Shown here: positions 5,094-41,619 of the stretch, in pieces | Position numbering within the stretch: position 1 is the stretch's first letter | Layout of the letters: every line of letters begins with the position of its first letter | IMG/VR virus record: IMGVR_UViG_3300021387_000091 | Coordinates: 133,979-176,795 of that record | Reading direction: 5' to 3' (one strand) | DNA length: 42,817 nucleotides | From: a virus | Lineage: Duplodnaviria; Heunggongvirae; Uroviricota; Caudoviricetes | The notes under the pieces: generated by a model | What the model was told of the DNA's origin: nothing | The model's input: the letters and a program-made list of their open reading frames with translations, nothing else | Database searches by the model: none | Made by a program: the position numbers and the translations under genes

Positions 5094-5666
5094 ATGCAAA
5101 TCTTTATATTTGATAATGTAACGAATACACTTCAAATAGACGATTACTCCATATTATTAATTAAAGAATTTGCAGACCTATGAGAACCAGAAAGAAATAA
5201 ATGTAAAGAAGATAAAACAGGTACTAAAAGACTTTTAGCATATAAAGAATTTACATACATTTATTTGGTTCTTGATTTCAAGTCTCCATATTTTAAATCA
5301 CCCATAAAGGATAGACAAGAAGCGGCTTTAATAGATTCCGGATTAAAAGAAAAAGATTTAGAAAATCCGGAATTTATTGCTGCTTATAAAAAATATGAGG
5401 AATTGCAAGATGCCGATCCAATTTTAACATCTATTAAAGTTGCATATAGAACTTTGTATAAATTTCAAGTTTATTTAGACAATATTGATTTTACTGAAAC
5501 TGATGTGGACGGTAAGCCTATTCATAAGGCTAAAGATATTTTAGACTCTATAAAACAAATTAGTGTAATGAGAACAACTCTTCAAGAGTTAGAACAAATT
5601 CACAAAACTGATTTGGCAGCAGAATCAAAGATTCGAGGTGATGTAGAGCAAGGTCTATTTGATTAA
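5094..5666 (+). CDS. Conserved hypothetical protein directly upstream of terL (terminase small subunit candidate by position only)
   Basis: ATG 5094 is in frame with track ORF 5265 through one TGA (DLWEPER). Confidence 0.65.
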
Positions 5667-5678
5667 TTGAGGAATAAT

Positions 5679-7955
5679 ATGTCAAAATATATCGTCGATC
5701 CGAAGGTATTAAATAAGGAGAAACCAAAGAAAACAAAAAACAAAGTTGAAACTCCTTTAGAAAAAAGAAATAAGAAACCAAAATTTTCGGATAAATATGA
5801 AGAGGATTTAATAAGACAATTGTTTGAGGAAAAGAAAAATAAAATTGAAGCAATGGATATTTCTTCTGTGCAAGAACAACAAGATGATATTTGAGTTCAC
5901 CACAAACGAAAAAATGCAGAATGAGATGTTCCTATTACTGAAAATATAAAATATTTTGACCCAGAATTGTCTTATGAACTTACTGGATATAGACCAATTA
6001 CAATGGAGCAGGGATTAGATTTTAATCCAACTCCATTTAGAGAAATGGCAATAACATTTCAGAATACTGGTAAATATACAGAATTCCCAAATGGCTCTGT
6101 TCCTAATAGAAAGTTCTGGAACAGAGAAATGGATAGGATTAAAAATGGACTTACTATTGGAAAGTATAGAATTACTGGAGACCATTATTATTTTCTAAAT
6201 TATTACCGTATGCAAACTGTTCTAGAAGATGCAACTGCTGGTACTGGTCGTGAATATAACTTTCCAACATTTCTATCTAAACAATATGAGTGGTTTCATT
6301 ATGTAGAAATGGCAGAAAAACTTGCATTAAACGCTGGAGCATTAAAAGGAAGAGGTACCGGTTGAAGTGAGATGACAGCTGCAATGTCAGTAAGGCCATA
6401 TACTTCAAATCCTAACTATAGGGTTGTTTTAACAGCATTTGATGACGGTAAATTACAACCACTAAGAGACAAATGCTGGTATCAGTTAAACTGATTGAAC
6501 GCTAATGCATATGGTTTTCGGCATATTAGGCAGGTTGTGGATAACGCTACAACAAAACGAGCTTCTAAACGAACAAAAGAAGGTGCTGAAGTAGGATGGA
6601 TGGCAGAAATACATTCTATTATTGCTGACAAAGCGTCAAAAATTCGTGGTGATCGTACAGATAGACTTATTTATGAAGAAGCTGGATCTAATACAATTCT
6701 TTCTAAATCTTGAATTCAAGGTGACGCACTTGTTGAATTGGGTGGTAAACACTTCGGTACAAAAATATTTCTCGGGACTGGAGGTGATGATGTAGCGCTT
6801 GAAGGATTGGCCACAATGTTCAAAAATCCAGCTGGAGCTAAAGTTTTAGCTTATAAAAACTATGATACTACTGATGGAAAACCAGAATTAAGCGCATTCT
6901 TCTGTCCTTCTCATAAATTTGCATTAGTTAGTACCTATCTTGATGAAAGAGGTGTAACAAATTGAGTAGAATTTAAAAAGCATTATGAGGAATATAGAAA
7001 AACTCTTCATGGCCAAGATTACTTAGACGAATGTGCAGAGCATTGTTTTACTCCAGAAGAAGCATTATCTAAAACTGGAGAAAATATGTTTGATGCAGAA
7101 CTAATAGCTGCAAGAATGGCTCAAATAATGGTTAAGAAGGATTGGATTGAACCAAAACGAATGATGCTATTATGGGATAAAACTGCAGAAAAGCAATGGT
7201 CTAAAATAAATGCGTTTGAATCACCTCATGGAAATGTTTTGGTTGTAGAGCCACCATTGGTTGATGATACAGGAACACCTTATAAAAATTTATATGTTGC
7301 CGGAATAGACTCAATTGATCAAGGTAAAGACGATTCAGCTACAGATAATGATGTTTCTGATTTCTGTATTGTTATTAAGAAGAGAGTCAGAGGAATGGAC
7401 GATCCTAAATATGTTGCCATATATAAAGATAGACCAAGAGACATTCGCCAAGCATATGAAACTGCACATAAATTATTAGTGTGATATAATTGCAATGCTA
7501 TGCTTGAATATACAAAGATTTCTATACAGAAATTTTTACAAGAAAGAAAAGCAGACGATCGTTTAATGAAACGCCCAGAATTTGCAGTATCAAATAAAGC
7601 AAGAAAGATTGTTACTAAAAAATTAATCGGTTTACCTGGAACAGAAGCTGTTATTAAACATGGATTGGAATTAATTAGTAACTTTCTTAACGATTATTGA
7701 TTTACAATAGATTTTCCAGAGATTCTTCAACAACTTTTAAAATATACTTATGCAAATAAACGTAAGTTTGATATTGTAGCTGCTTTACAAATGGCAGAAA
7801 TTGGAGATGAAGAGTTATTTGGAATAAATCCAACTAAGGTTGTTAATCAAAATGCCGTTTGAGAAGATTTTGGATATTATAGAGACGAAAATGGTCATAT
7901 GCGGCGTGGTGCAATTCCAAATAATAGTAAATACGAAACACGATGACGGACATAG
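5679..7955 (+). CDS. terL: Terminase large subunit
   Basis: Six track fragments share one frame and are joined by TGA. ATPase motif LKGRGTGWSE, Walker B IYEEAG, GTGG coupling motif, nuclease motifs GIDSID and D-CI; about 758 aa. Confidence 0.93.
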
Positions 7956-8236
7956 AAAAAGATATTAAACGGATAATTGAAGAAGTAACGGAACGAGAAT
8001 ATATTACAAAATTGCAAGTATCACATGAAGACGATATATGAACTTTATACTTGTTTTTGAATAGAGAGCTCGTTCCGTTAGTTATAAGCATTCAAGGTGA
8101 TGAAAAGCGATTTAAACAGTTTGTTGCTGAAGAAATGAAACGTCGTAGGTTACAAGAAGTTAAATACTGAAGAACAGAAAGAACGCTTCCTGCACTAGAA
8201 TGTAATGAGAACGGTGAATTTGAGTTAGGATGGTAA
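7943..8236 (+). CDS. 97-aa hypothetical protein between terL and portal
   Basis: MTDIEKDIKRIIEE...ELGW*, two in-frame TGA. Fills the gap exactly and overlaps both neighbours. Confidence 0.75.
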
Positions 8237-10809
8237 AGGAAAAAGAAATTGACAAAATCAATTCGTGTATTAGCGATTTGGTTTATGATAAAATAGCTCT
8301 TAAAAAGGCCTATAATTATTATCACGGCATCAGAGATGCTGAACAATTTAGACATATTGAGGAAAACTACGGTATTGGAGTCCCAACATCTGTCGGATTC
8401 ACTCCGTTAATCAAGAAACATATAGATGTCTTGGTTGGAGAATATCTTGAACTCGATCCAGATTTACAAGTAACCTGTAAGGATGATGAAACCGTCTCAA
8501 ATATATTAAGAGATAAACAATTAAAAATAGATAAAGCATTATATGATTTTTTAAAAAAATATTTGCAAAATACTATTATAAATATTCTTTTAAACAATCA
8601 GCAACCAGTTAATGATCCTTTTATAGAAAAGGAAATGCAGCGAATCAAAGAGGATATTGAAAATTCATTTGTATCTGATTATGAAATAGCTGCACAAAAT
8701 ATACTTGAGTATATAAAGCATTCAAGAGATATTGATTTAAAAAACAAAGCGAAGGAATTATTTACAGATCTATTAATTGGAGGTATTTGTTACTTTAGAA
8801 CAAGAAAAAAGAGTGACAACATTTGTTTAGAAATATTAAATCCTCTCGATACATTTATTGAAAGAAATCCTAATGAATTTTATTTAAATAAATCTAGAAG
8901 AGCTGTAGTAAGAAGATGGCTAACTAAAGAGCAAATTTTAAATGAGTATGCAGACGAACTTGGAAAAGATGCAATTGCTCGTTTAAATGGAATGTTTTCA
9001 AGAAGAGATAGAGGTGATAGAGCAATTGTAGTAAGATCTACTGGTGCTTTATATGCAGATGATGCTCAAATTCTTGGTGAACCACATGAGCCAAAACCAG
9101 GCATTCTTGCTGGTTTAGAAGTACATCCAATATTTCCTTGAGATGATGCCGGACAATATACACATATAAATTCTGAATTAATCCAAGTCTACGAATGCGA
9201 ATGAGTTGAATGAGACAATAATAAAAGAAGATCTGTATTACACCAGGGCATTAAAATCGGCGATGATATTTATATCACAAGAGGCGAAGCTGATTATTAT
9301 GTTCAAAGCAGAAGTAATCCGAGGGATGTATCACTATCGATAAACGGAATGTTTTTTAACGATAAAAACGGACAACCATATAGTCTAATGCTCGCTACAA
9401 TGGACTTACAGGATTAAATTTACTGGTCCTGTCTAAACCCCGTGAACTGCTGGAACGCTAAGTTGTAAGAATGTGACATCTTACAATATGCCAATCAGCA
9501 ACCAAGCTCTTATATAGAGAAGGCTCAACGACTATTATGTAAGATTCAAGTGAATCTGAAGTGCGGGGACGTTATAAATTAAAACAGCTGATAAAACCAC
9601 ATCTTTATCAGCCTAAAACATGAGCTAATAATAGTTCTACAGAATGCTTTGGTGTAGAATTATTAGAAATTGTAATAAATAATTTATAACGTATGATATA
9701 GTCTGATCTTATACGAAAGTATAAGCGGTTCTGACAGAACGGCTGTGAATTAACGACTCACAGTGAACAAAATGAAGTATGATTTACTATTATACTGCAG
9801 AGACAATCTCATTGCCACTAGTGGTACTGTTGGAGATTGGATTGACATTGCACACTTACCTGTAGCTTTAGGTGTAAAATTACCAGAAAGAATTATGAAA
9901 TGGCAGGCTTATAAAAAGAATGGCATTGCCTTATATGATTCTTCTCAAGAAGGTGCACAGATATTAAATACTACTTTTAATGGATTTGATGATACAATAA
10001 AAGCCCAATCCATTCAAGCTATTCAAATTGCAATTGATAGTGTAGAAGCACAAGCATCTGCTATTACCGGTGTATTTGCCGAAAAACTTGGACAAATCGA
10101 ACAACGAGACGCTGTATCAAACGTAAAAGTTGGAATACATCAATCAACACTTTTAACAAAACAATATTTTCACGCAATGGATTTAATGTATAAAGAAATG
10201 AATTATGATATGTTAAATCTTGCAAAATATGTCTATAAAGATGGTATCACAGGTACTATAATTCTTGGTGATAGATTGGTGAAAACATTTACAGCTCTTC
10301 CTAAGTATTATACAATGACTGATTTCGATATTCATATTGAAGATAGTTCAGAAACATATAAAATGCGAGATCAGCTTCAAGCAATAAATGTTGAATTTGT
10401 AAAAGCCGGTTTGGTTGATGCAAAGGATTCAATTGCTATAATTAGAGCTAAAAATATGACTCAGCTTAAGCAATATATGGATAAAGCCATTAAAGAAAAG
10501 AAAGCTGAAAATAATATGGTTAATCAACTTCAGCAACAAGTTGAACAAATGACTGCTGAGAAGAAACAATATGAACAACAGATTCAACAACTTAATTCTA
10601 AAGTTGAATCTCTTCAGAAACAATTGCTTAATAACTCTCAGCAAAAGCTTCAAATTGAACAGCAACGTGCTGATATTGAAGAAAAAGTTGCAAACGATAA
10701 GAAGGATTACAATGATAAGCTTATTGAAGTTAAAGAAAGACAACTTGAGGCTGAAATTCTGCAAATCAGAGATGGTAATCCATATAACGATCAAATAAAA
10801 GACGTATAA
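8230..10809 (+). CDS. Portal protein, spliced: exon 1 8230-9414, exon 2 9775-10809 (about 739 aa)
   Basis: Follows terL. crAss-type portal motifs AYNYYHG, KHIDVLVGE, LNPLDTF, VYECEWVEW (TGA-encoded Trp). Splicing restores ...TMDLQD|KYDLLLY... in frame. Confidence 0.9.
9415..9774 (+). mobile_element. Group I self-splicing intron (IA2-like) with no homing endonuclease ORF
   Basis: P1 caggaU pairs with gtcctg with a U.G at the 5' splice site; P4 tgctg/cagca; P3 ccccgt/gcgggg; P7 gactat/atagtc; P8 acgttataaatt/aatttataacgt; P9 cttatac-GAAA-gtataag; terminal G at 9774. Confidence 0.92.
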
Positions 10810-24009: not shown

Positions 24010-27000
24010 ATGAAAAAAGTAAAGATTAACTATAATGATACTTTTGGAACTATGCATTCTCGTGATTATTATCGTGGTGCATCTTTCCATTTTTCTGGAA
24101 AATGAATTTCTGGAGCTCATTATGTTAGTGATGATTATAATATTGACTTTGTGGTACATGGCCAGACTCTTCTGGCCTGTGCCAAAAGTCATTTATCTTC
24201 ATTAGACAATGAACCAACGGAATTTATAACAGATGAAAGTGGCACTATTATTGGTGTTATATCAACATATTGGGATTTTGTTTTATCTGGAATTGTAGGA
24301 AATTCTCCAGGTGTTAAAATAATAGATAACTATTGGTACATTTGTAAAAACACTGGTGTTCCAGAAGAAGAACAAGTCTGGGAAAACACTGGCGTTAAAG
24401 CAAAGATGGAACTTAGTGACTTATCTCCTGAAGAGATTGCACTATTACAGGAACCTGGTAAGCAAGTAGTTACTGAATTTGTTAATAATACTATTACTCA
24501 GGAAACTGGTCAGAATATAGACAAAATTATGTCTCAAAAGGCTGTAACAGACGCACTAAATACAAAAGCTACTGTTTCACAAGTTACTTCTGCTATTGCT
24601 AATGAAGTACAACGTGCTGATCTTGCATATCAACCAAAAGGAGATTATGCCACCAATACTACTGTAAATACAAATAAAGAAGATGCTGATCGTAAGTTTA
24701 CAGCAGTAAATGAAAGAATCGATACAACAAACGAAAACGTATCTAATAATGCTGATGCAATACAAGAGGAAATAGAAAATAGAGAATCTGAAATAGAAAG
24801 AATTGAAGGTTTGATTTCTGCAGAAGAAACTGCTAGAGTTGAAAGTGACAATGCTTTATCTAATAGAATTTCTCAAGAGACTACTGCAAGAAGTACAGCC
24901 GATAATAATCTTGAACAATCTATTGCTAATATTAACTCTAAAATTCCTTCAGAAGCAAGTTCATCTAATCAATTAGCAGATAAAGATTTTGTTCATAACG
25001 AAATCTCAACAAGTAGCGCTACTTTTAGAGGAACTTATAATACATTAACAGAACTAGAAGCACAAGAAGCTGATAATAATGACTATGGTTTTGTAGTTCA
25101 CACAGATGCATTAGGAAATACTGTTTATTCCAGATATAAATATAATGGTACAGAGTGGTTATGAGAATATGATATTACTAGTACTGAATTTTCTCAATCT
25201 CAATGAGAAGCAGTTAATTCTGGTATTAATTCAACTTTAGTAACTAAACTATCTGATTTACCAACTAATGCAGATTTAACAACAACGTTAAATAGTAAAG
25301 TTGATAAAGTTGCAGGAAAACAGTTATCTACTGAAGATTATACTACTGCTGAAAAGAATAAACTCGCTGGTATCGCTTCAGGTGCTCAAGTTAATGTTCT
25401 TGAAGGAGTTAAAGTTGATGGTACAGAACTACCTATTACAGACAAGAAAGTTAATATTGATTTATCTGGTAAAGTAGATGTTGCTGATTCTGAAACTAAT
25501 TCTGATGAATTTGTTTATAGACAAACAGGTGATGGGCTTAATGTCGAAGCTAAGAATGCTAGAATAAGTAGCATTAAAGGCAATACGCTCGTGTGGAATC
25601 AGATGGTGGAGAACGGTAACTTTGTCGATAACTTGAATGGATGGAGTGTTATCACACCGGGAACGATAAGTGTTGCAAACAATGTCTTGTCTTATTCTTG
25701 GCAGAGTCCTTACTCTAACAACGGCATTGAACAAGTCAACTGTCCAATCATTGCCTCCCATAAGTATTACATCGCGGGGACGATTAAAAACACCGCAGAT
25801 GCCGAAAGGAAATATTATATAGGATACACATACGATTCAAGTTTTAGGGTACAAGACTCATTCTTAGCTGGTCAAACGAAACGAATCAGTGCAGTAACAG
25901 TTGCATCCTCAAACTCTGGCAAACAAGGAAAAAATTTAGCCATTGTCGGCCAAGTAAATATTAATAATAGCATAGAGGCAAGCAATATTGTATGCATCGA
26001 CCTCACCTTGATGTTCGGCGCGGGCAATGAGCCTTTGACCGTAGAGGAGTTCGAGGCGATGTTCCCCGATACATACTACCCTTATAACGCAGGCACGCTG
26101 ATTATCAACGATGCTTCTGCGCTGGAGACCGTTGGGTTCAACCAGTGGGACGAGGAATGGTTAAGAGGATATTATAATGTCGCTGGTCAATATCTTGAAG
26201 CCGATAATAGAATTTGCTCAAAAAATAGAATAAAAGTTTTTGGCGACACCGATTATTATATCAAATCGCCAAACGCAATGACAATCTTCTTTTTTGATGA
26301 AAATTTCAATAACCTCGGTAATGCAATCTCAGTAAATAACGCAATTTTTCATACGCCTCAATCGTGTTCTTATATCTTATTCTATGCATCTTTTACTGAT
26401 TATGGTAATGTGTATAACCACGACATCTGCATCAACCTTTCCGATGCCTCAAAGAATGGCACATACGAGCCGTACTGGAAGAGGACGCTGAACCTCGGCC
26501 TGAACAACATCAGGGTGAAGAGCCACAATATATGGGACGAGGAATGGGAAGTGGGAATGATTAGTCAATCTACTGGCGTTAATAAGGCTGATTCAACAAG
26601 GCTTCGTTCTAAAAACTATATATCCGTTAATCCTGGCGATAAGTTGTATTTCTACGGGGCAAGTAGGTATGTTTATTATTGGATATTCTATTATGATTCC
26701 AATATGCAATTTATTGTTGGTAGCATTGATGGCTCTACGGGGTATAAAAACAATATTGATATAAATAAAATCGGCATTGTTCCCGCTAATGCAAGGTATC
26801 TTCGCTTCTATTGTGCAACCCAAGTCAATACTTACCAGAACGACATCTGCATCAACCTTTCCGACTCTAATTTCAACGGTCAGTATGAGCCGCACGGGAT
26901 ACTGACATTCAATGGGGTAAAGAGTGCGCCGGGTTCTATCACTAAGATTGGTGGGACTCTTGGTGGAGCATACGATGAAATCAGCAATAAGTTCATCAAG

Positions 27001-30000
27001 AGAATCGAAAGGCTTGTCTTTGATGGAACCGAAAATTGGGGTAAGGCAAATGGCATCTTTAAACTTGTTGGCTGGTATGATGGTCATCCGCTCCCCTACT
27101 ATCATACTTATACAGACAACGTGGGCCAAGGTGGTGTTGGCATGTGTAGTGTTTTCGGCCAGTCATATTTTACAAGTGGTGCTGTGACTGGCACATATAG
27201 CCTGCTTATTGGTGAGGCTAACTGGGGCTTTGATATTTTGTCTACGAGAGTTCCGGGTGGCTCGGATACGACTGTTGACCAATTTAAAGCATGGCTTGCA
27301 TCTCTTTATGCGGCTGGAACTCCAATGACACTCGACTACGTCCTTGCCACCCCCATCGAGTACGAACTCGTAGAACCAATTCGCACAGATTATCCTGTAG
27401 ATAAATTAGGAACAGAAAGAATTATTTCTGACACAGTTCCTACTCCTCCATTCTGTGCTGATATTACTTATCATGAAGCAAATATTAAAGATATAGAGAT
27501 AGAAGGAATAACAGAATATCTAAAGAGAGAAGAACTTACTGATGAGTTAGATAAGTTAGATACTATTGAAGAAGGTGCTCAAGAAAATAAGATTGAACAT
27601 ATTACTCTTGGTGGAACTGAGCAAACTATTACTAATAAAACAGTAAATCTTCCTGCGTATCCTACTACTTTACCTGCAAGTGATGTATCAGCATGAGCTA
27701 AAGCAGCAACTAAGCCTAATTATAGTTTTAGTGAAATTGGAGGTACTGTAGCTGACTCTCAATTGCCAGATACTATTAGTTCTGATATTACTGGAACTGC
27801 TATGGGACTTAAAACTGAAAAGTTAACTGGTCAGGAGTTCGTCTACCGCATCAGCCCTGCGAGTATTAAAGCCAAGTCGCTTACCATCGACAGGATAAAG
27901 GGCAGGACTCTGGCGTGGAATCAATTGTGCCCTCTATTCTCTACTGTGGGTGAAGTGCCGCGTTGGAGTATAGAAACATTTATACGCGATGTATCTGCCG
28001 ATGGAAAAACTATAACGATAACTTTTACATCGGCCACAAACCCTCGATTCAGGCTATATCACGGACTATTGCCGACACACACTTTTTTTGTTTGTTATGA
28101 TTATCGTATAAACTCGTTGGCCTCAACGATTGGTTGGTCGGCTACTGGCGTTCTTCCACCACTTGTTCCCGAAGACTCACAAGTTGGTGTTTGGCAACAT
28201 AATAAAAAATTGATAAGTTATAACGACTCCGTCGACTACAGTGTGACATTCCCGGATATTGGTTCCAGTTATGAAGGGGCCCAAGTGTCCGTGCAAAATT
28301 ATAGGATAGTAGACCTTACTCTATTCTTTAACGGCAGTATTCCAGACGGATACACTGCTGAGGATTTTGAGAACGAGTATGGCTATTTGCTCCAAGATGC
28401 TGATGTTATATCCGGCACTCTCATCTCCAACGATGCTTCTGCGCTGGAGACCGTTGGGTTCAACCAGTGGGATGAGGAATGGAAAAGTGGTGGGTATGAT
28501 ATTTATGGAAACCCAGCACCTTCAAATGAATATATAAGAACAAAAAATAGAATTCCTATTGTCGCAGGCCAAACTTATTATATTCATTATAATGGAACGA
28601 TAGCGAGTGGTCAATTTGCAAGTTATATATTCGATTCCGCTGATAATTTACTCTTACGGGTCGAGGGCTATAATAAAACTGTTAACGCACCGGAAAATTC
28701 GTCCTATATGGTGTTTAACTATAAGGCAACAACCTACAACCACAACATCTGCATCAACCTCTCCGACCCTGCCAAGAACGGCACATACGAGCCGTACTGG
28801 AAGAGAACGATACACCTTGGACTGAACAACTTCAGGGTAAAGAGCCACAATATCTGGGACGAGGAATGGGAACTGGGATATTGGAACTCAACTGGCTGGC
28901 ACGCCAACAATAACTTCCTCGGTTCGAAGAATTATATCGCGGTATTCCCCTCTACTTCGTACTTCTTTAAGAGTCCCACAAATGTTAGGGAAATTGAATT
29001 TTGGGATGTTAACAAGAATTACATAGATAGGCTTACTTGGAATGAAGGAAGTGCAAATAGTGGCTTCACTACACCAGCGAATTGCCGTTATGTTACCTTT
29101 TATTTCGGAGGAACCTACGGCACCACTTACCAGAACGACATCTGCATCAACGTCTCTTCCTCCTTCAACGGACAGTATGAGCCGCACGGGATACTGACAT
29201 TCAATGGAGTGCCGAGTGCCGGAAGTGTCTATGACGAGATTGTCGGGAATAAGTATGTCAAGAGAGTGGGAAGTGTGGATTTGGGGAGTTTAAATTGGAC
29301 AAGAGCACAATATGGTGATATATATTGTTTTGTGTCAAGCATTTCTGGTAAGAAATTCGCGATAGAGAACATTCTTTCCGCAAAATATATTGTAGCCAAT
29401 AAACTTGCTTCTGAGTTATTAAAGGGTGAGAGTAGGGGAGACAATTCATCATCGGCAATCTATATTCGTGATGATGCCTACTCCGATGCAGCTTCCTTCA
29501 AAGCCGCCATGTCGGGCGTAATGCTGAACTACGAACTCGCCACCCCTGTAGAGTACGAGTTGGTGGAGCCTCTTGTGCCCACGGTGAAGGCCGGTACGAC
29601 CGAGGCAAGGATTAGTCCTAACGCTGACGGCCTGTCCGCTCCGTTCAGGGCAGACATAATTTATTCTGTTGCAGATTATATAGAATATGCTGATAGGGCT
29701 GGGACTCTTGTAAAAGGTGCTTCTGTTGATTTAACTGATATTACTGCAAATGGAGAGCTTTCTGGTAATGCTTTCAAAGTTATAGCTGAGCATATTGCTA
29801 AGTTAACATCAAGAGTTGAAGCATTAGAGAATGGAATTGGTGTTACTGATACTTTATCTTCTAATTCTGTAGATTCTGCTAATGGATACTATATAAATGG
29901 AGATAAAACTGTTATTATAGGTTCTGGAGCTCCTATAGTAGTTCCAGCATTTGCAGGACAGTTTTATATTAATACATCTGGTCCAGCATTGTATTATGCT

Positions 30001-30039
30001 GTTAATAATAGTGCAACAACAGATTGAAAACAAGCTTAA
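24010..30039 (+). CDS. 2009-aa tail fibre / receptor-binding protein with two duplicated modules
   Basis: Track ORFs 24151, 25591 and 27763 share one frame through TGA. Coiled-coil E..AR...D..L repeats, GKQLSTEDYTTAEKNKLAGI fibre motif, four WDEEW...ICIN domains. Confidence 0.82.
25572..29660 (+). repeat. Dispersed direct-repeat blocks between fibre module 1 (about 25575-27385) and module 2 (about 27830-29655)
   Basis: 26106-26160 vs 28428-28482 (55 nt, 1 mismatch); about 26414-26550 vs 28735-28872; about 26830-26918 vs 29125-29210; about 27337-27378 vs 29530-29570. Confidence 0.9.
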
Positions 30040-30042
30040 TAT

Positions 30043-31341
30043 ATGATTAAAAGTTATACAAATGAATCTGAGTGGGCTTCAGCAACGAAGCCCACTACAG
30101 AATCTACAGTTGGATTACTGTTAGATTCTAATACACCTGTTATTAATGGTGTTAATGTGTTGGTTACAATACCTAAATATGGAGATGCAGTAGTTCTGGA
30201 TGCAGATGGTAATATCCGTTTCATTGCTTTTGGAACTTTTAACAACGATACTTTCCCTAGTAGTTGGACTAAGGTAGGAGTAGTTTATCGTGTGAGAGGT
30301 AAGAAAGTTGATGTTATTTCATATACTTCTTTAGGTGGAATTAGATACTCTGCTATTTGAAGATTAAAAATTACAGGATATACTCTTGATTCTGCAGACC
30401 ATACTGCTGTATTAAGAAGTTATGATAACAATGGCGCTTATACTGATTTAAGTTTTACTTATAACGCTGCTTCTCCTTCTGATTTGATAAGTCAGTTTAA
30501 TACATGAGCAGAAACGTCTGGAAATGATCCAAATAACAGAGGTTTCTATATGTATTTAGATGGTTCTGGTGTAGTGCAGTTCTGTGAAGCTAATTATAAT
30601 CACTGGAGGCAACATTCAGATGGATGGGTAAGTGGTTTAACTTCTTCTCCAAGTGTTGCACAAGAAATTCCCAATATTACTTGGAATCCTGATATGGATG
30701 GTATTTCTCGTATTTACAATACTGTTAATATTGGTGCTGTTAAACGTTGAGGTGGTAGAACTTTAAGTTCTGTAGAAGTAATTACTGCTAATAATACTCC
30801 TATTTCAAAGGCCTCTTTTGAAAGCGAATACGGTATTAATTATCAAAATGCTTATGGAACTTATGATAATTATCTTGAACATAACTGTGCAAAGATTCCT
30901 GTAAATAAAGGCGTATGTTCGTGAACAAATGTTGGACATGAATATACTTACGCTTTAGCTGATTTAACTTATAAAACTAAAGCTGGAGAAACAGCTTATA
31001 TGTATAATGCTCCTCATCAAGTATCTACTTTTGGTTTTTCTACAAATAGTGATCTTGCTGCTGGGAAATGATATATTCCAGATGTAGAGGAAATGATCGT
31101 ATTAATGAGACCGATTACAGTAGGAAACAGCGGAATTAGTACAGTGGATCAGTATGATAAAGTAAACCAGACCATTTATGCTATGGGAGGAAATACTATA
31201 AGTACCAACGCCAGGCGTTGGTGTAGTTGTAGGTACGGTAGCGACGATGTGTGGGCTTGTGACTCCGGTGCTTATTTGTACAACAGCGGTTTCTACGGGA
31301 CATTGGCTGTTGTTCCTGTGTGCCGCCTCCGTATTGCTTAG
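30043..31341 (+). CDS. DGR target protein (432 aa) with C-terminal C-type-lectin-fold variable region
   Basis: Three track ORFs share one frame through TGA. KWYIPDVEEM motif followed by RRWCSCRYGSDDVW...VVPV, typical of DGR CLec/DUF1566-like C-termini. Confidence 0.8.
31205..31341 (+). other. DGR variable region (VR) and putative IMH
   Basis: Locally GC-rich run of NNY codons (tac ggt agc gac gat ... gct tgt gac tcc ggt gct tat ... tac aac agc ggt ttc tac), as expected from adenine mutagenesis of AAY template codons. No matching TR seen in the window. Confidence 0.7.
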
Positions 31342-32171: not shown

Positions 32172-33047
32172 ATGGCAGAAGAAAAAACTTATGTATTTGG
32201 CAATGATGCCAATTCTCTTCCACTTGCTTACGCTCTTAACGGAAACGGATGGAATAATGGTGGCCTTGGTGGCTGAGGCGGCGGTATTGTTGGATTCCTT
32301 CTTGGCTTAGCTTTTGGCGGCTTTGGTGGAGGTTTCGGTGGTTTTGGTAACGGTTTTGGCGGTGGAGTTGGCAATTTAGTTAACTCTGATAGTAACCGCG
32401 ATGTTGTTCTCCAAGCTATTAATGGTACAGATGCAGATGTTCGTCAATTAGCTTCTACACTTGGAATGAATTATGAAACAATTAGTGCTGGTATTACTGA
32501 TGCACGTATTGCTCTTCAGAATGTAGGTTCTCAGGTTGGACTTTCTAGCTTACAAGTTCAAAACGCTATTCTATCTGGCGACGCTTCTATTGTTTCTAAA
32601 CTCCAGGAGTGTTGCTGCGAGAATCGCCTTTTAACAACCGAACAGGGTTATCAGGCTCAGATTCGTACTATCGAGCAAACTAATCAGCTTGGTTCTCAAG
32701 CAGATCGTAATACTGCTGCTCTTACTAGTGCAATTAATGCTTTCCACGATGACATGACTCGTGAATTCTGTGAAGTTCGTGAGCGTGAAATGCAAGATAA
32801 GATTAGCACTCTTACTGCTGCTAATGCTGCTCTTAAGAGTCAAATTGATAATGCTAACCAAACCGCTGCTGTTGCTGCTATGCTTGCTCCTATCCAGAAA
32901 GAAGTTTCTGAGATTAAAGCTGCACAGCCTGCAACCACAACAGTTACTTATCCTCAATTAACAGCTATCCCTTCTTATATGCTTTATGGAAATGGTAGCT
33001 ATTACGGATATCCTTTTTATAACGGAAATGGCTCAATCTGGGCTTAA
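32172..33047 (+). CDS. Gly-rich, membrane-segment and coiled-coil protein with a CCC motif (291 aa)
   Basis: ATG 32172 is in frame with track ORF 32466 via one TGA. GGIVGFLLGLAF hydrophobic segment, GGFGGGFGGF repeats, LQECCCENRL. Confidence 0.8.
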
Positions 33048-40191: not shown

Positions 40192-41619
40192 ATGAGAATA
40201 TCTGGTTTTACAACTATTAGACCTAACATGGCTGATACTAGAACTGCAGAAGATTTTATGAAATTTCTCTCTGTTAAGCCTGCTCGTCTAGGTCTTGTAT
40301 CTACAATGTACGATCAGTACACAATTACGCATCTTACTGAAGCACTTCAGAATATCTATACAAAGGGCAAACCAAAGGATAGCTTTAAGAGCATTGATTC
40401 CTTCGTTGTTGAGTGGGATATTCAGGTTAAGAGAATTAAGAGAGTTCCTATTCTTCGTGTTGAAGGTGATGGATGCAATGGTTCTGACATCCTATTCTAC
40501 TTCCCTGAGAACTATTATCAGAAATTCGATACCTTTATTATCGAAAAGACTCGTGATCTTATCATTGTTATGAATCGTCCACAGAGACTTCGTGATAATG
40601 AATTCCTTGTAATTGGTAAGATTAACGATTCTGATTACACTTCTGCTATCGTTCCTGGTGATCTTACTAATGCAATGACAAGATTCGTCACTAACTATAT
40701 GCCAGAACTACACGAAGAAGGTTATACAAAATATCAAAGCAATTGCGAGAAGCATCGTAGCTTTATTGCAACACACAGAAATGATGTTGATCTTTCTGCT
40801 ATGTATAAACCTCTAGAGGATGTATTCATTCAGATTGGTGCTGGTAAAGATGGTGGAAAAGATGATCCTGTGTTTGTACTAAAGAAAGCCGAAGAGCAAG
40901 TAATTGAAAATTATCTTGAGGCTCGTGATATGGATCTCGTTTGGGGTAAAGCAAACGTTGATGCTAACGGAAAGCCTAAGATTTATGATGATGAAACTGG
41001 TCGTCCTATTATCTCTGGTGATGGACTTATTGCCCAACTTGAACGTTTTGCTACTAAGTTTGTTTTCTCAAAGCTTACTGTAGCTTACTTCCAGAAAGCT
41101 CTTGCTACTCTTGTTGCTAAGAGTGTTAAACCTACAGGTAACGAGTATCTATTCCTTGTAAATACTCGCCTATGGAACGAAATTAATACCGTTCTTGATC
41201 GTTGGCTTGCTGAACATAAGACTGATGGCGCTGTTCTTTATTCTAAAGCTGCAAATGGTTATGTTGAACTTGGTGCTACATATCATTCTTATGAATTTGC
41301 TGGTAACAAAGTTATCTTCAAAGTAGAACGTACATTTGATGTTGAGTTCCCTACCCGTAATTACGGTATTATGGTTGATCTCACAGCAGATGGTATTTCC
41401 AACAAACCTGCAATGGAAATGCTTACCTTTAAGGGTGGCCAATTCATTCACAACTGGATTGTTGGTGTTGGTGGTAAGGATGGCCTAAGCTCTGGTGAAG
41501 TTTCTAGCCGTGTTGCTGGCAGCCACATCGTTGCATGGGGTTATGCAGGTCTTGCAATGTACAATCCTTATCGTTCTGTTATCTTCATGGGTGAAGACAC
41601 TAACACATCACTATTTTAA
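40192..41619 (+). CDS. Major capsid protein (crAss type)
   Basis: 475 aa; KPARLGLVS, TEAL.NIY, SNCEKHRSFIATHR.D and GDGLIAQLE motifs; strongly optimised codon usage; followed by a terminator. Confidence 0.9.
   Translation: MRISGFTTIRPNMADTRTAEDFMKFLSVKPARLGLVSTMYDQYTITHLTEALQNIYTKGKPKDSFKSIDSFVVEWDIQVKRIKRVPILRVEGDGCNGSDILFYFPENYYQKFDTFIIEKTRDLIIVMNRPQRLRDNEFLVIGKINDSDYTSAIVPGDLTNAMTRFVTNYMPELHEEGYTKYQSNCEKHRSFIATHRNDVDLSAMYKPLEDVFIQIGAGKDGGKDDPVFVLKKAEEQVIENYLEARDMDLVWGKANVDANGKPKIYDDETGRPIISGDGLIAQLERFATKFVFSKLTVAYFQKALATLVAKSVKPTGNEYLFLVNTRLWNEINTVLDRWLAEHKTDGAVLYSKAANGYVELGATYHSYEFAGNKVIFKVERTFDVEFPTRNYGIMVDLTADGISNKPAMEMLTFKGGQFIHNWIVGVGGKDGLSSGEVSSRVAGSHIVAWGYAGLAMYNPYRSVIFMGEDTNTSLF

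Follow-up and report, generated by a model that had tools for sequence, protein, structure and literature searches.

The window analysed here is a 42,817-nucleotide stretch of DNA comprising bases 133979–176795 of the IMG/VR virus record IMGVR_UViG_3300021387_000091 (record length 176,795 bp); positions below are those of the window unless the genome is named. The 176,795-bp genome has direct terminal repeats and a GC content of 0.32. Its source is a large phage of the rumen or gut in which TGA, normally a stop codon, stands for tryptophan, and the sequence is best explained as that of a 177-kb crAss-like phage. Our subject is one late gene on the plus strand, 24010–30039, which, given where it lies among the late genes, the domains found in its homologs and the fold of its modules, is predicted to encode a receptor-binding protein or tail fibre. 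It lies between genes of 2580 and 432 amino acids (aa), an order kept in two recoded relatives, L069 and L080, and it combines an AT-rich backbone with two modules that are richer in GC at third codon positions (GC3). The features of the gene are as follows.

24010–30039, plus strand: tail-fibre-type late gene, 2009 codons with TGA read as tryptophan (P0001)
24010–25520, plus strand: native AT-rich N-terminal backbone, GC3 ~0.1, TGA tryptophan codons at 24103, 25162 and 25204, 72–76% nucleotide (nt) identity to its orthologs in L069 and L080
25570–27375, plus strand: GC3-rich core of module 1, 13 TGG (25594–27292) and no TGA, domains A, B1, B2, C, carbohydrate-binding module (CBM)-like beta-sandwich
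26413–26921, plus strand: domain B2 of module 1, an anchor-to-anchor block, 92.1% nt identity to the fibre gene of the standard-code contig L076
27376–27550, plus strand: AT-rich 3' tail of cassette 1, GC3 ~0.1, 81–87% nt identity to the TGA-recoded phages L072 and L078
27551–27783, plus strand: native backbone linker, in which TGA 27694 is the conserved tryptophan of the motif SAWAKA (TGA in L069, TGG in L080)
27784–27793, plus strand: direct repeat GATATTACTG, left copy, 10 bp, 5' edge of the site-2 insert
27832–29655, plus strand: GC3-rich core of module 2, 14 TGG (27916–29296) and no TGA
28855–29171, plus strand: domain B2 of module 2, an anchor-to-anchor block, 86.9% nt identity to the fibre gene of L079 (standard-code, GC 0.48)
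29737–29746, plus strand: direct repeat GATATTACTG, right copy, 10 bp, 3' edge of the site-2 insert
29738–30039, plus strand: native AT-rich C-terminal backbone, TGA tryptophan codon at 30025, 91% nt identity to L069

When TGA is treated as a sense codon (code 4), the late plus-strand genes merge into open reading frames (ORFs) of up to 2580 codons and coding density is restored. In-frame TGA codons then lie inside conserved long ORFs, five of them in the 2009-codon fibre gene. Under the standard code (code 11) that gene breaks into several ORFs, including 25591–27696 and 27763–30027. The genome also encodes a suppressor-type tRNA with the anticodon UCA (tRNA(tca), complement of genome positions 80187–80280, called by ARAGORN), whose charging identity is putative. 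Where TGA faces a different codon in alignments of window genes with their L069 orthologs, that codon is TGG in 15 of 23 columns and a Tyr or Phe codon in 5 of 23; TGA 27694 is likewise replaced by TGG in L080. Because the late ORFs merge, a UCA tRNA is encoded and the TGA columns mostly face TGG, the reading of TGA as tryptophan in this phage appears well founded. Of the 335 tryptophan codons in its native late genes, 179 (53%) are TGA. The terminase gene terL (5667–7955, assigned to the PHROG terminase large subunit) contains 10 TGA and 7 TGG, as an earlier note on this DNA had counted. The nearest named relatives of TerL are those of crAss-like phages (27–44% aa identity), and a megablast search of terL against 50,697 GenBank phage records gave no match.

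The degree of recoding varies between close relatives. The long ORFs of L069 contain 11 in-frame TGA codons against 55 TGG, far fewer recoded codons than in the window's phage, and in the 432-aa gene next to the fibre gene six tryptophan positions are TGA in one of the two orthologs and TGG in the other.

Within the fibre gene, composition changes abruptly. Across the whole window GC climbs from ~0.32 to 0.41–0.42 only over 25.5–30 kb, and the in-frame profile, at single-codon resolution, shows four GC3 steps (at ~25570, 27375, 27832 and 29655), each completed within ~10 codons. GC3 is 0.05–0.15 in the N-terminal 505 codons, the linker and the last 125 codons, and 0.25–0.82 in the modules; the means are ~0.11 for the backbone and ~0.45 for the cassettes. 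All five in-frame TGA codons (24103, 25162, 25204, 27694 and 30025) lie in the AT-rich backbone, and the 27 tryptophan codons of the modules are all TGG. An exact recount thus agrees with the earlier note on the 13 and 14 TGG codons, on the use of TGA in flanks and linker and on the GC-richer codons of the modules, and its limits of 25575 and 29655 fall within a few codons of the outer steps.

How improbable this absence of TGA is depends on what is allowed for. If all 27 codons are independent and the native rate of 53% applies, P = 1e-9, and a Fisher test of the modules against the native late genes gives P = 5e-9. The two modules are paralogous, however (35% aa identity, register offset 2322 nt), and have eight tryptophan columns in common; with ~19 independent codons, P = 5e-7. 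Fewer TGA codons are also partly predicted by the GC-rich third positions of the modules. When the expected TGA share is scaled by the local choice between A and G at Lys, Glu and Gln codons, it falls to 0.22–0.27, and P becomes 5e-4 (27 codons) or 4e-3 (19 codons). The TGA-free signal is real, but once paralogy and GC3 are allowed for it is weaker than the probability of about 1e-8 given in the earlier note, which took neither into account; conservative values of P run from 4e-3 to 5e-7.

In the recoded relative L069 the order of genes is unchanged (a 2586-aa gene, the fibre gene and a 432-aa gene), and its fibre ortholog of 816 aa contains five TGA codons, no GC-rich island and neither cassette. 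The two genes align along the backbone, with nt identities of 76% (24013–24659), 72% (25068–25399), 86% (27551–27780) and 91% (29738–30039). Relative to L069, module 2 is a clean insert in place of ~7 nt and module 1 stands in place of ~120 nt. TGA 27694 and TGA 30025 correspond to W686 and W813 of this cassette-free ortholog, where they are TGA too, in the motifs SAWAKA and TTDWKQA; by this alignment both are sense codons and neither is an imported stop. Backbone orthologs have switched between TGG and TGA at 15 of 39 conserved tryptophan columns (38%), so long-resident sequence does gain TGA. In the comparison with L069, the site-2 insert is flanked on either side by an exact copy of the 10-bp direct repeat GATATTACTG, an arrangement that would fit either a microhomology-mediated insertion or, in the L069 lineage, loss of the DNA between the two copies.

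In L080 the fibre protein is 1356 aa long (5253–9323); site 1 is free of a cassette and site 2 holds one. The ends of this site-2 cassette are common to both phages (89.5% nt identity over 27551–27846 and 86.8% over 29473–30100). Its interior differs from that of the window, is shorter and contains one TGA, at codon 861 (context EVTQWIPYNN), so cassettes can carry the recoded codon. Since both cassette ends are shared and the interior is not, the site-2 slot appears to predate the split from L080, with the interior replaced since.

What the interiors resemble elsewhere is a patchwork. The best whole-module match in IMG/VR, a set of 5.8 billion proteins and the JGI metagenomes has ~50% aa identity, and an 80-residue sliding search gives a mosaic in which some blocks reach 85–95% aa identity to relatives and others merely 23–50%. 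Two blocks are conserved at the DNA level: 26413–26921 is 92.1% identical over 509 nt to the fibre gene of L076, and 28855–29171 is 86.9% identical over 320 nt to that of L079. Both run from anchor to anchor, and each corresponds to one beta-sandwich domain. L076 and L079 use the standard code, since TGA serves as a stop in both, with ATGA overlaps: it ends 8 of 20 genes in L076, mostly in such overlaps and including the fibre gene, and 6 of 17 in L079 (GC 0.48, with BACON-domain neighbours). The four GC3 breakpoints of the window fall in motifs that hardly vary across a family alignment of 45 sequences: IKGNTLVWNQ and LATPIEYELVEP for module 1, QEFVYR and APFRADI for module 2. These anchors are 82–92% identical in nt across phages of GC 0.32–0.52 and of either code. 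Conserved DNA anchors thus flank the variable domains, with the breakpoints inside them, as expected of module exchange. Judging from these matches, the cassettes were probably assembled piecemeal, domain by domain, not captured whole from one donor.

Most relatives of the cassettes lie in phages of ordinary code: 59 of 64 IMG/VR loci with relatives are compatible with it, at a median GC of 0.45. Across the hosts examined, cassette GC3 stays at 0.44–0.55 while that of neighbouring or other genes ranges from 0.27 to 0.75. It exceeds that of its neighbours in AT-rich phages (0.44 against ~0.3 in L076; 0.45 against 0.11 in the window) and falls below it in GC-rich ones (0.49 against ~0.6 in L079; 0.55 against ~0.65 in L077). 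The family is therefore compositionally foreign in AT-rich and GC-rich hosts alike (L076:3409–5070, L077:8001–11033, L079:8001–11747). The signature seen in the window recurs in cassette homologs of three further recoded phages, L071, L072 and L078. Pooled over these four recoded phages, the cassettes have 1 TGA and 65 TGG and the backbones 27 TGA and 24 TGG (P = 2e-11). The L078 cassette matches its backbone in AT-richness (GC3 0.23 and 0.21), yet TGA accounts for 0 of 10 tryptophan codons in the cassette and 10 of 20 in the backbone; for this reason TGG-only tryptophan is a marker somewhat independent of GC3. The L078 cassette has patches of 91% nt identity in L088, a contig of GC 0.30 whose long ORFs stay uninterrupted when read in the standard code, so an AT-rich standard-code source exists for it.

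An AlphaFold2 model of module 1 (mean predicted local distance difference test score, pLDDT, 75.6, with three domains above 90) shows tandem beta-sandwiches. Foldseek matches the model, at a probability of 1.0, to CBM4, CBM16 and CBM22, to CBM-like domains of Cry and Vip3, to SGBP-B of B. thetaiotaomicron and to phage receptor-binding proteins, with template modelling (TM) scores of 0.55–0.61 when normalised to single-domain CBM targets. The modules thus have the beta-sandwich fold in common with these carbohydrate-binding and phage receptor-binding domains but differ from them in sequence: identity is only 9–14%. No Pfam family was assigned to the fibre protein or to five other large late proteins, and in PHROGs the fibre protein matched only two unnamed families, both on the backbone. 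Elsewhere, homologs occur as fusions with Peptidase_S74, collagen or Phage_fiber_2 domains. The modules are naturally predicted to bind glycans in host recognition.

We consider it likely that the cassette interiors are foreign sequence of standard-code type inside a recoded gene, drawn from a shared pool and swapped at the anchors. A conserved AT-rich backbone would hold two in-frame cassettes, each a string of CBM-like beta-sandwich domains. The cassettes would belong to a large receptor-binding family that circulates among rumen and gut phages, mostly of standard code and GC ~0.45, and homologous recombination at the short DNA-conserved anchors would exchange single domains or whole cassette interiors. 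Having come from this pool, the interiors would keep its GC3 (~0.45–0.55) and its TGG-only tryptophan, while the resident backbone would have drifted to a GC3 of ~0.1 and to TGA at about half of its tryptophan codons. The marks usually sought for horizontal acquisition agree in part: there is a sharp compositional break, the segments are absent from the locus in relatives, and closer relatives occur in standard-code contigs; a near-identical donor for a whole segment was not among the matches, the best reaching ~50% aa identity over a whole module. The earlier note had proposed a recent import from standard-code phages or prophages. Foreignness to the backbone stands, given the absence of the cassettes from L069 and the blocks shared with L076 and L079: the closest relatives of the DNA blocks are standard-code, and GC3 differs from the flanks. 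Capture of whole modules gives way to a patchwork.

Several observations weigh against this reading. In searches of IMG/VR, the JGI metagenomes and the 5.8-billion-protein set, no donor exceeded 92% nt identity or spanned a whole module. The closest relative, L076, is itself an AT-rich contig (GC 0.38) with a GC-richer fibre gene, and is probably another recipient rather than the source. Some whole-cassette relatives sit in the recoded phages L071, L072 and L078, and the best long protein match, P0126, is probably also in a recoded phage and not a donor, because the gene calls upstream of it are fragmented and one has a weak LRR_EndoS match, as does the window's 2580-aa gene. Several stretches inside the modules have near-native GC3 (0.12–0.3). 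Finally, part of the GC-rich 3' end of module 2 matches L080 at the identity of the backbone, and that part is therefore not younger than the split from L080. Recency accordingly holds in a relative sense only: the interiors have been replaced, but the site-2 slot, the AT-rich ends and part of the GC-rich 3' end are common to L080 (87–90% nt).

Other searches concerned where a donor might lie. Neither megablast nor tblastn found relatives of the modules in the 50,697 GenBank phage records, and a scan of JGI metagenomes yielded 80 relatives but no closer match than the other searches had. Among 185,579 prokaryote species genomes, one per species, there were only 3 weak matches (28–30% identity); this near-absence leaves the prophage donors that the earlier note had allowed for without support.

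A more far-reaching proposal, which we regard as possible but doubtful, is that the boundary between genetic codes acts as a one-way valve on the shared pool of receptor-binding domains. Standard-code phages would feed recoded ones, TGA-bearing cassettes could not return, the pool would stay TGA-free, and cassette turnover would outpace the drift from TGG to TGA. The basis for fast turnover is the 1 TGA among 66 cassette tryptophan codons, set against the 38% of backbone columns that have switched. If true, tryptophan codon choice would become a usable clock for the replacement of host-recognition domains in uncultured recoded phages. For the present gene, the earlier note's suggestion that this choice dates the mosaic stands as far as foreign origin is marked; fine dating fails, because blocks 8–13% diverged from their standard-code relatives would be expected to have gained no TGA yet.

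The strongest competitor to foreign origin is selection, which we judge improbable. Here the cassettes would be long resident and purifying selection would bar TGA from them, for example because suppressor decoding is less accurate at structurally critical tryptophans. The L078 cassette, which lacks TGA at nearly the GC3 of its backbone, speaks for such an account, and so does a hint that TGA carries a cost: native late genes use it for only 53% of tryptophans, though 80% of their Lys, Glu and Gln codons end in A. Against this, the L088 patches point to an AT-rich standard-code source for the L078 cassette, and TGA is tolerated in the cassettes of L080 (codon 861) and L071 (codon 449). Avoiding TGA in the modules would bring no gain in expression, as three TGA codons upstream must be read in the same polypeptide anyway. 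Selection also fails to account for the GC3 jump, for breakpoints at anchors and for the absence of the cassettes from L069.

We give still less credence to a chimera of metagenome assembly, in which GC-rich fibre DNA of co-occurring standard-code phages had been joined to this genome at the anchors; the judgement here is one made from assembled contigs. The anchors are indeed repeats common to several phages at 82–92% nt identity, where assemblers can jump between genomes, but at that distance they are too dissimilar to collapse in a de Bruijn graph. The reading frame is kept across all four module junctions, the two modules are separated by a native AT-rich linker with a conserved TGA, the site-2 junctions are common to L080 at 87–90% nt identity, and mosaics of this type recur in five assemblies made independently from other samples (L071, L072, L078, L080 and L076).

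The chance that the modules are two imported standard-code genes, fused to the backbone and with their own TGA stops at 27694 and 30025 now read through, is negligible: the code-11 ORFs 25591–27696 and 27763–30027 do each end in TGA, but both codons lie in native AT-rich backbone away from the module ends, and the ortholog alignment refutes the idea, with both conserved as tryptophan in L069 within SAWAKA and TTDWKQA and the first as TGG in L080. Equally slight is the chance that a diversity-generating retroelement (DGR) wrote the GC-rich TGA-free patches in place, which is contradicted by the size of the modules (~1.8 kb, ten times a DGR variable region of ~100–200 nt) and by the lack of any template-like further copy in the 176.8-kb genome besides the two modules themselves; moreover, GC3 peaks in the motifs that are best conserved and not in those that vary most.

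Exchange of cassette interiors at conserved anchors has a familiar counterpart. In T-even phages, conserved motifs in gp37 and gp38 reportedly act as recombination sites between variable segments, according to work by Tetart and colleagues from 1996 to 1998. Like the fibre described here, T-even adhesins have variable receptor-binding segments split by short conserved motifs that hold the exchange breakpoints, and domain duplication within one fibre. The present case differs in that the exchanged units are whole CBM-like beta-sandwich domains of ~110–170 aa, that the cassettes are embedded in the shaft, with a conserved C-terminal domain downstream of them, instead of sitting at the tip, and that exchange would take place between phages of different genetic codes; in sequence the fibre does not resemble gp37 or gp38. 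Since the swapping of modules between tail fibres is classical, this is no new mechanism but a clear further case of such exchange in host recognition.

Stop-recoded phages of gut and rumen in which the early genes are code-compatible and the late ones recoded have been described by Borges et al. (bioRxiv 10.1101/2021.08.26.457843). Like them, the present phage is AT-rich and encodes a suppressor tRNA, and its in-frame TGA codons cluster in late, structural and lysis genes. Borges et al. explain stop-free genes by the timing of expression, and the words 'horizontal', 'recombination' and 'tail fiber' do not occur in their text; the stop-free stretch reported here is part of a late gene that is itself recoded, and it is attributed to foreign origin. 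Opal suppression is also reported for Zeta-group crAss-like phages (Table 1 of PMC12386605; Yutin et al. 2021, PMC7886860), which resemble this phage in genome size (176.8 kb here, with terminal repeats), GC (0.32), a UCA tRNA and opal suppression. The genome features thus fit the Zeta crAss-like group, to which the phage may belong. The sections of the two papers drawn on here report fibre diversification by DGRs and exchange of polymerases, and do not describe GC-rich TGA-free fibre cassettes.

If the cassettes came from ordinary-code phages, then genes still flow from such phages into a code-changed one, down to single binding domains. The absence of recoded stops, combined with foreign third-position composition, would be a simple marker of import. 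It should aid in tracing the evolution of host range in crAss-like phages, and also in annotation, as gene callers set to code 11 would give the cassettes as two separate 700-aa proteins.

Milder compositional outliers occur elsewhere in the window: a 475-aa ORF at 40192–41619 (GC 0.38, GC3 0.27, 0 TGA and 6 TGG) and a 291-aa ORF at 32172–33047 (GC 0.42); one of the two was searched in Pfam and PHROG, with no assignment. Upstream of the window, at genome positions 102–108 kb and 122–128 kb, lie two more GC-rich islands (GC 0.37–0.42 against 0.32) with short ORFs on either strand. The portal gene is split by ~350 nt: the adjacent window ORFs 8230–9417 and 9763–10809 match the N- and C-terminal halves, respectively, of the portal family phrog_6547 in PHROG.

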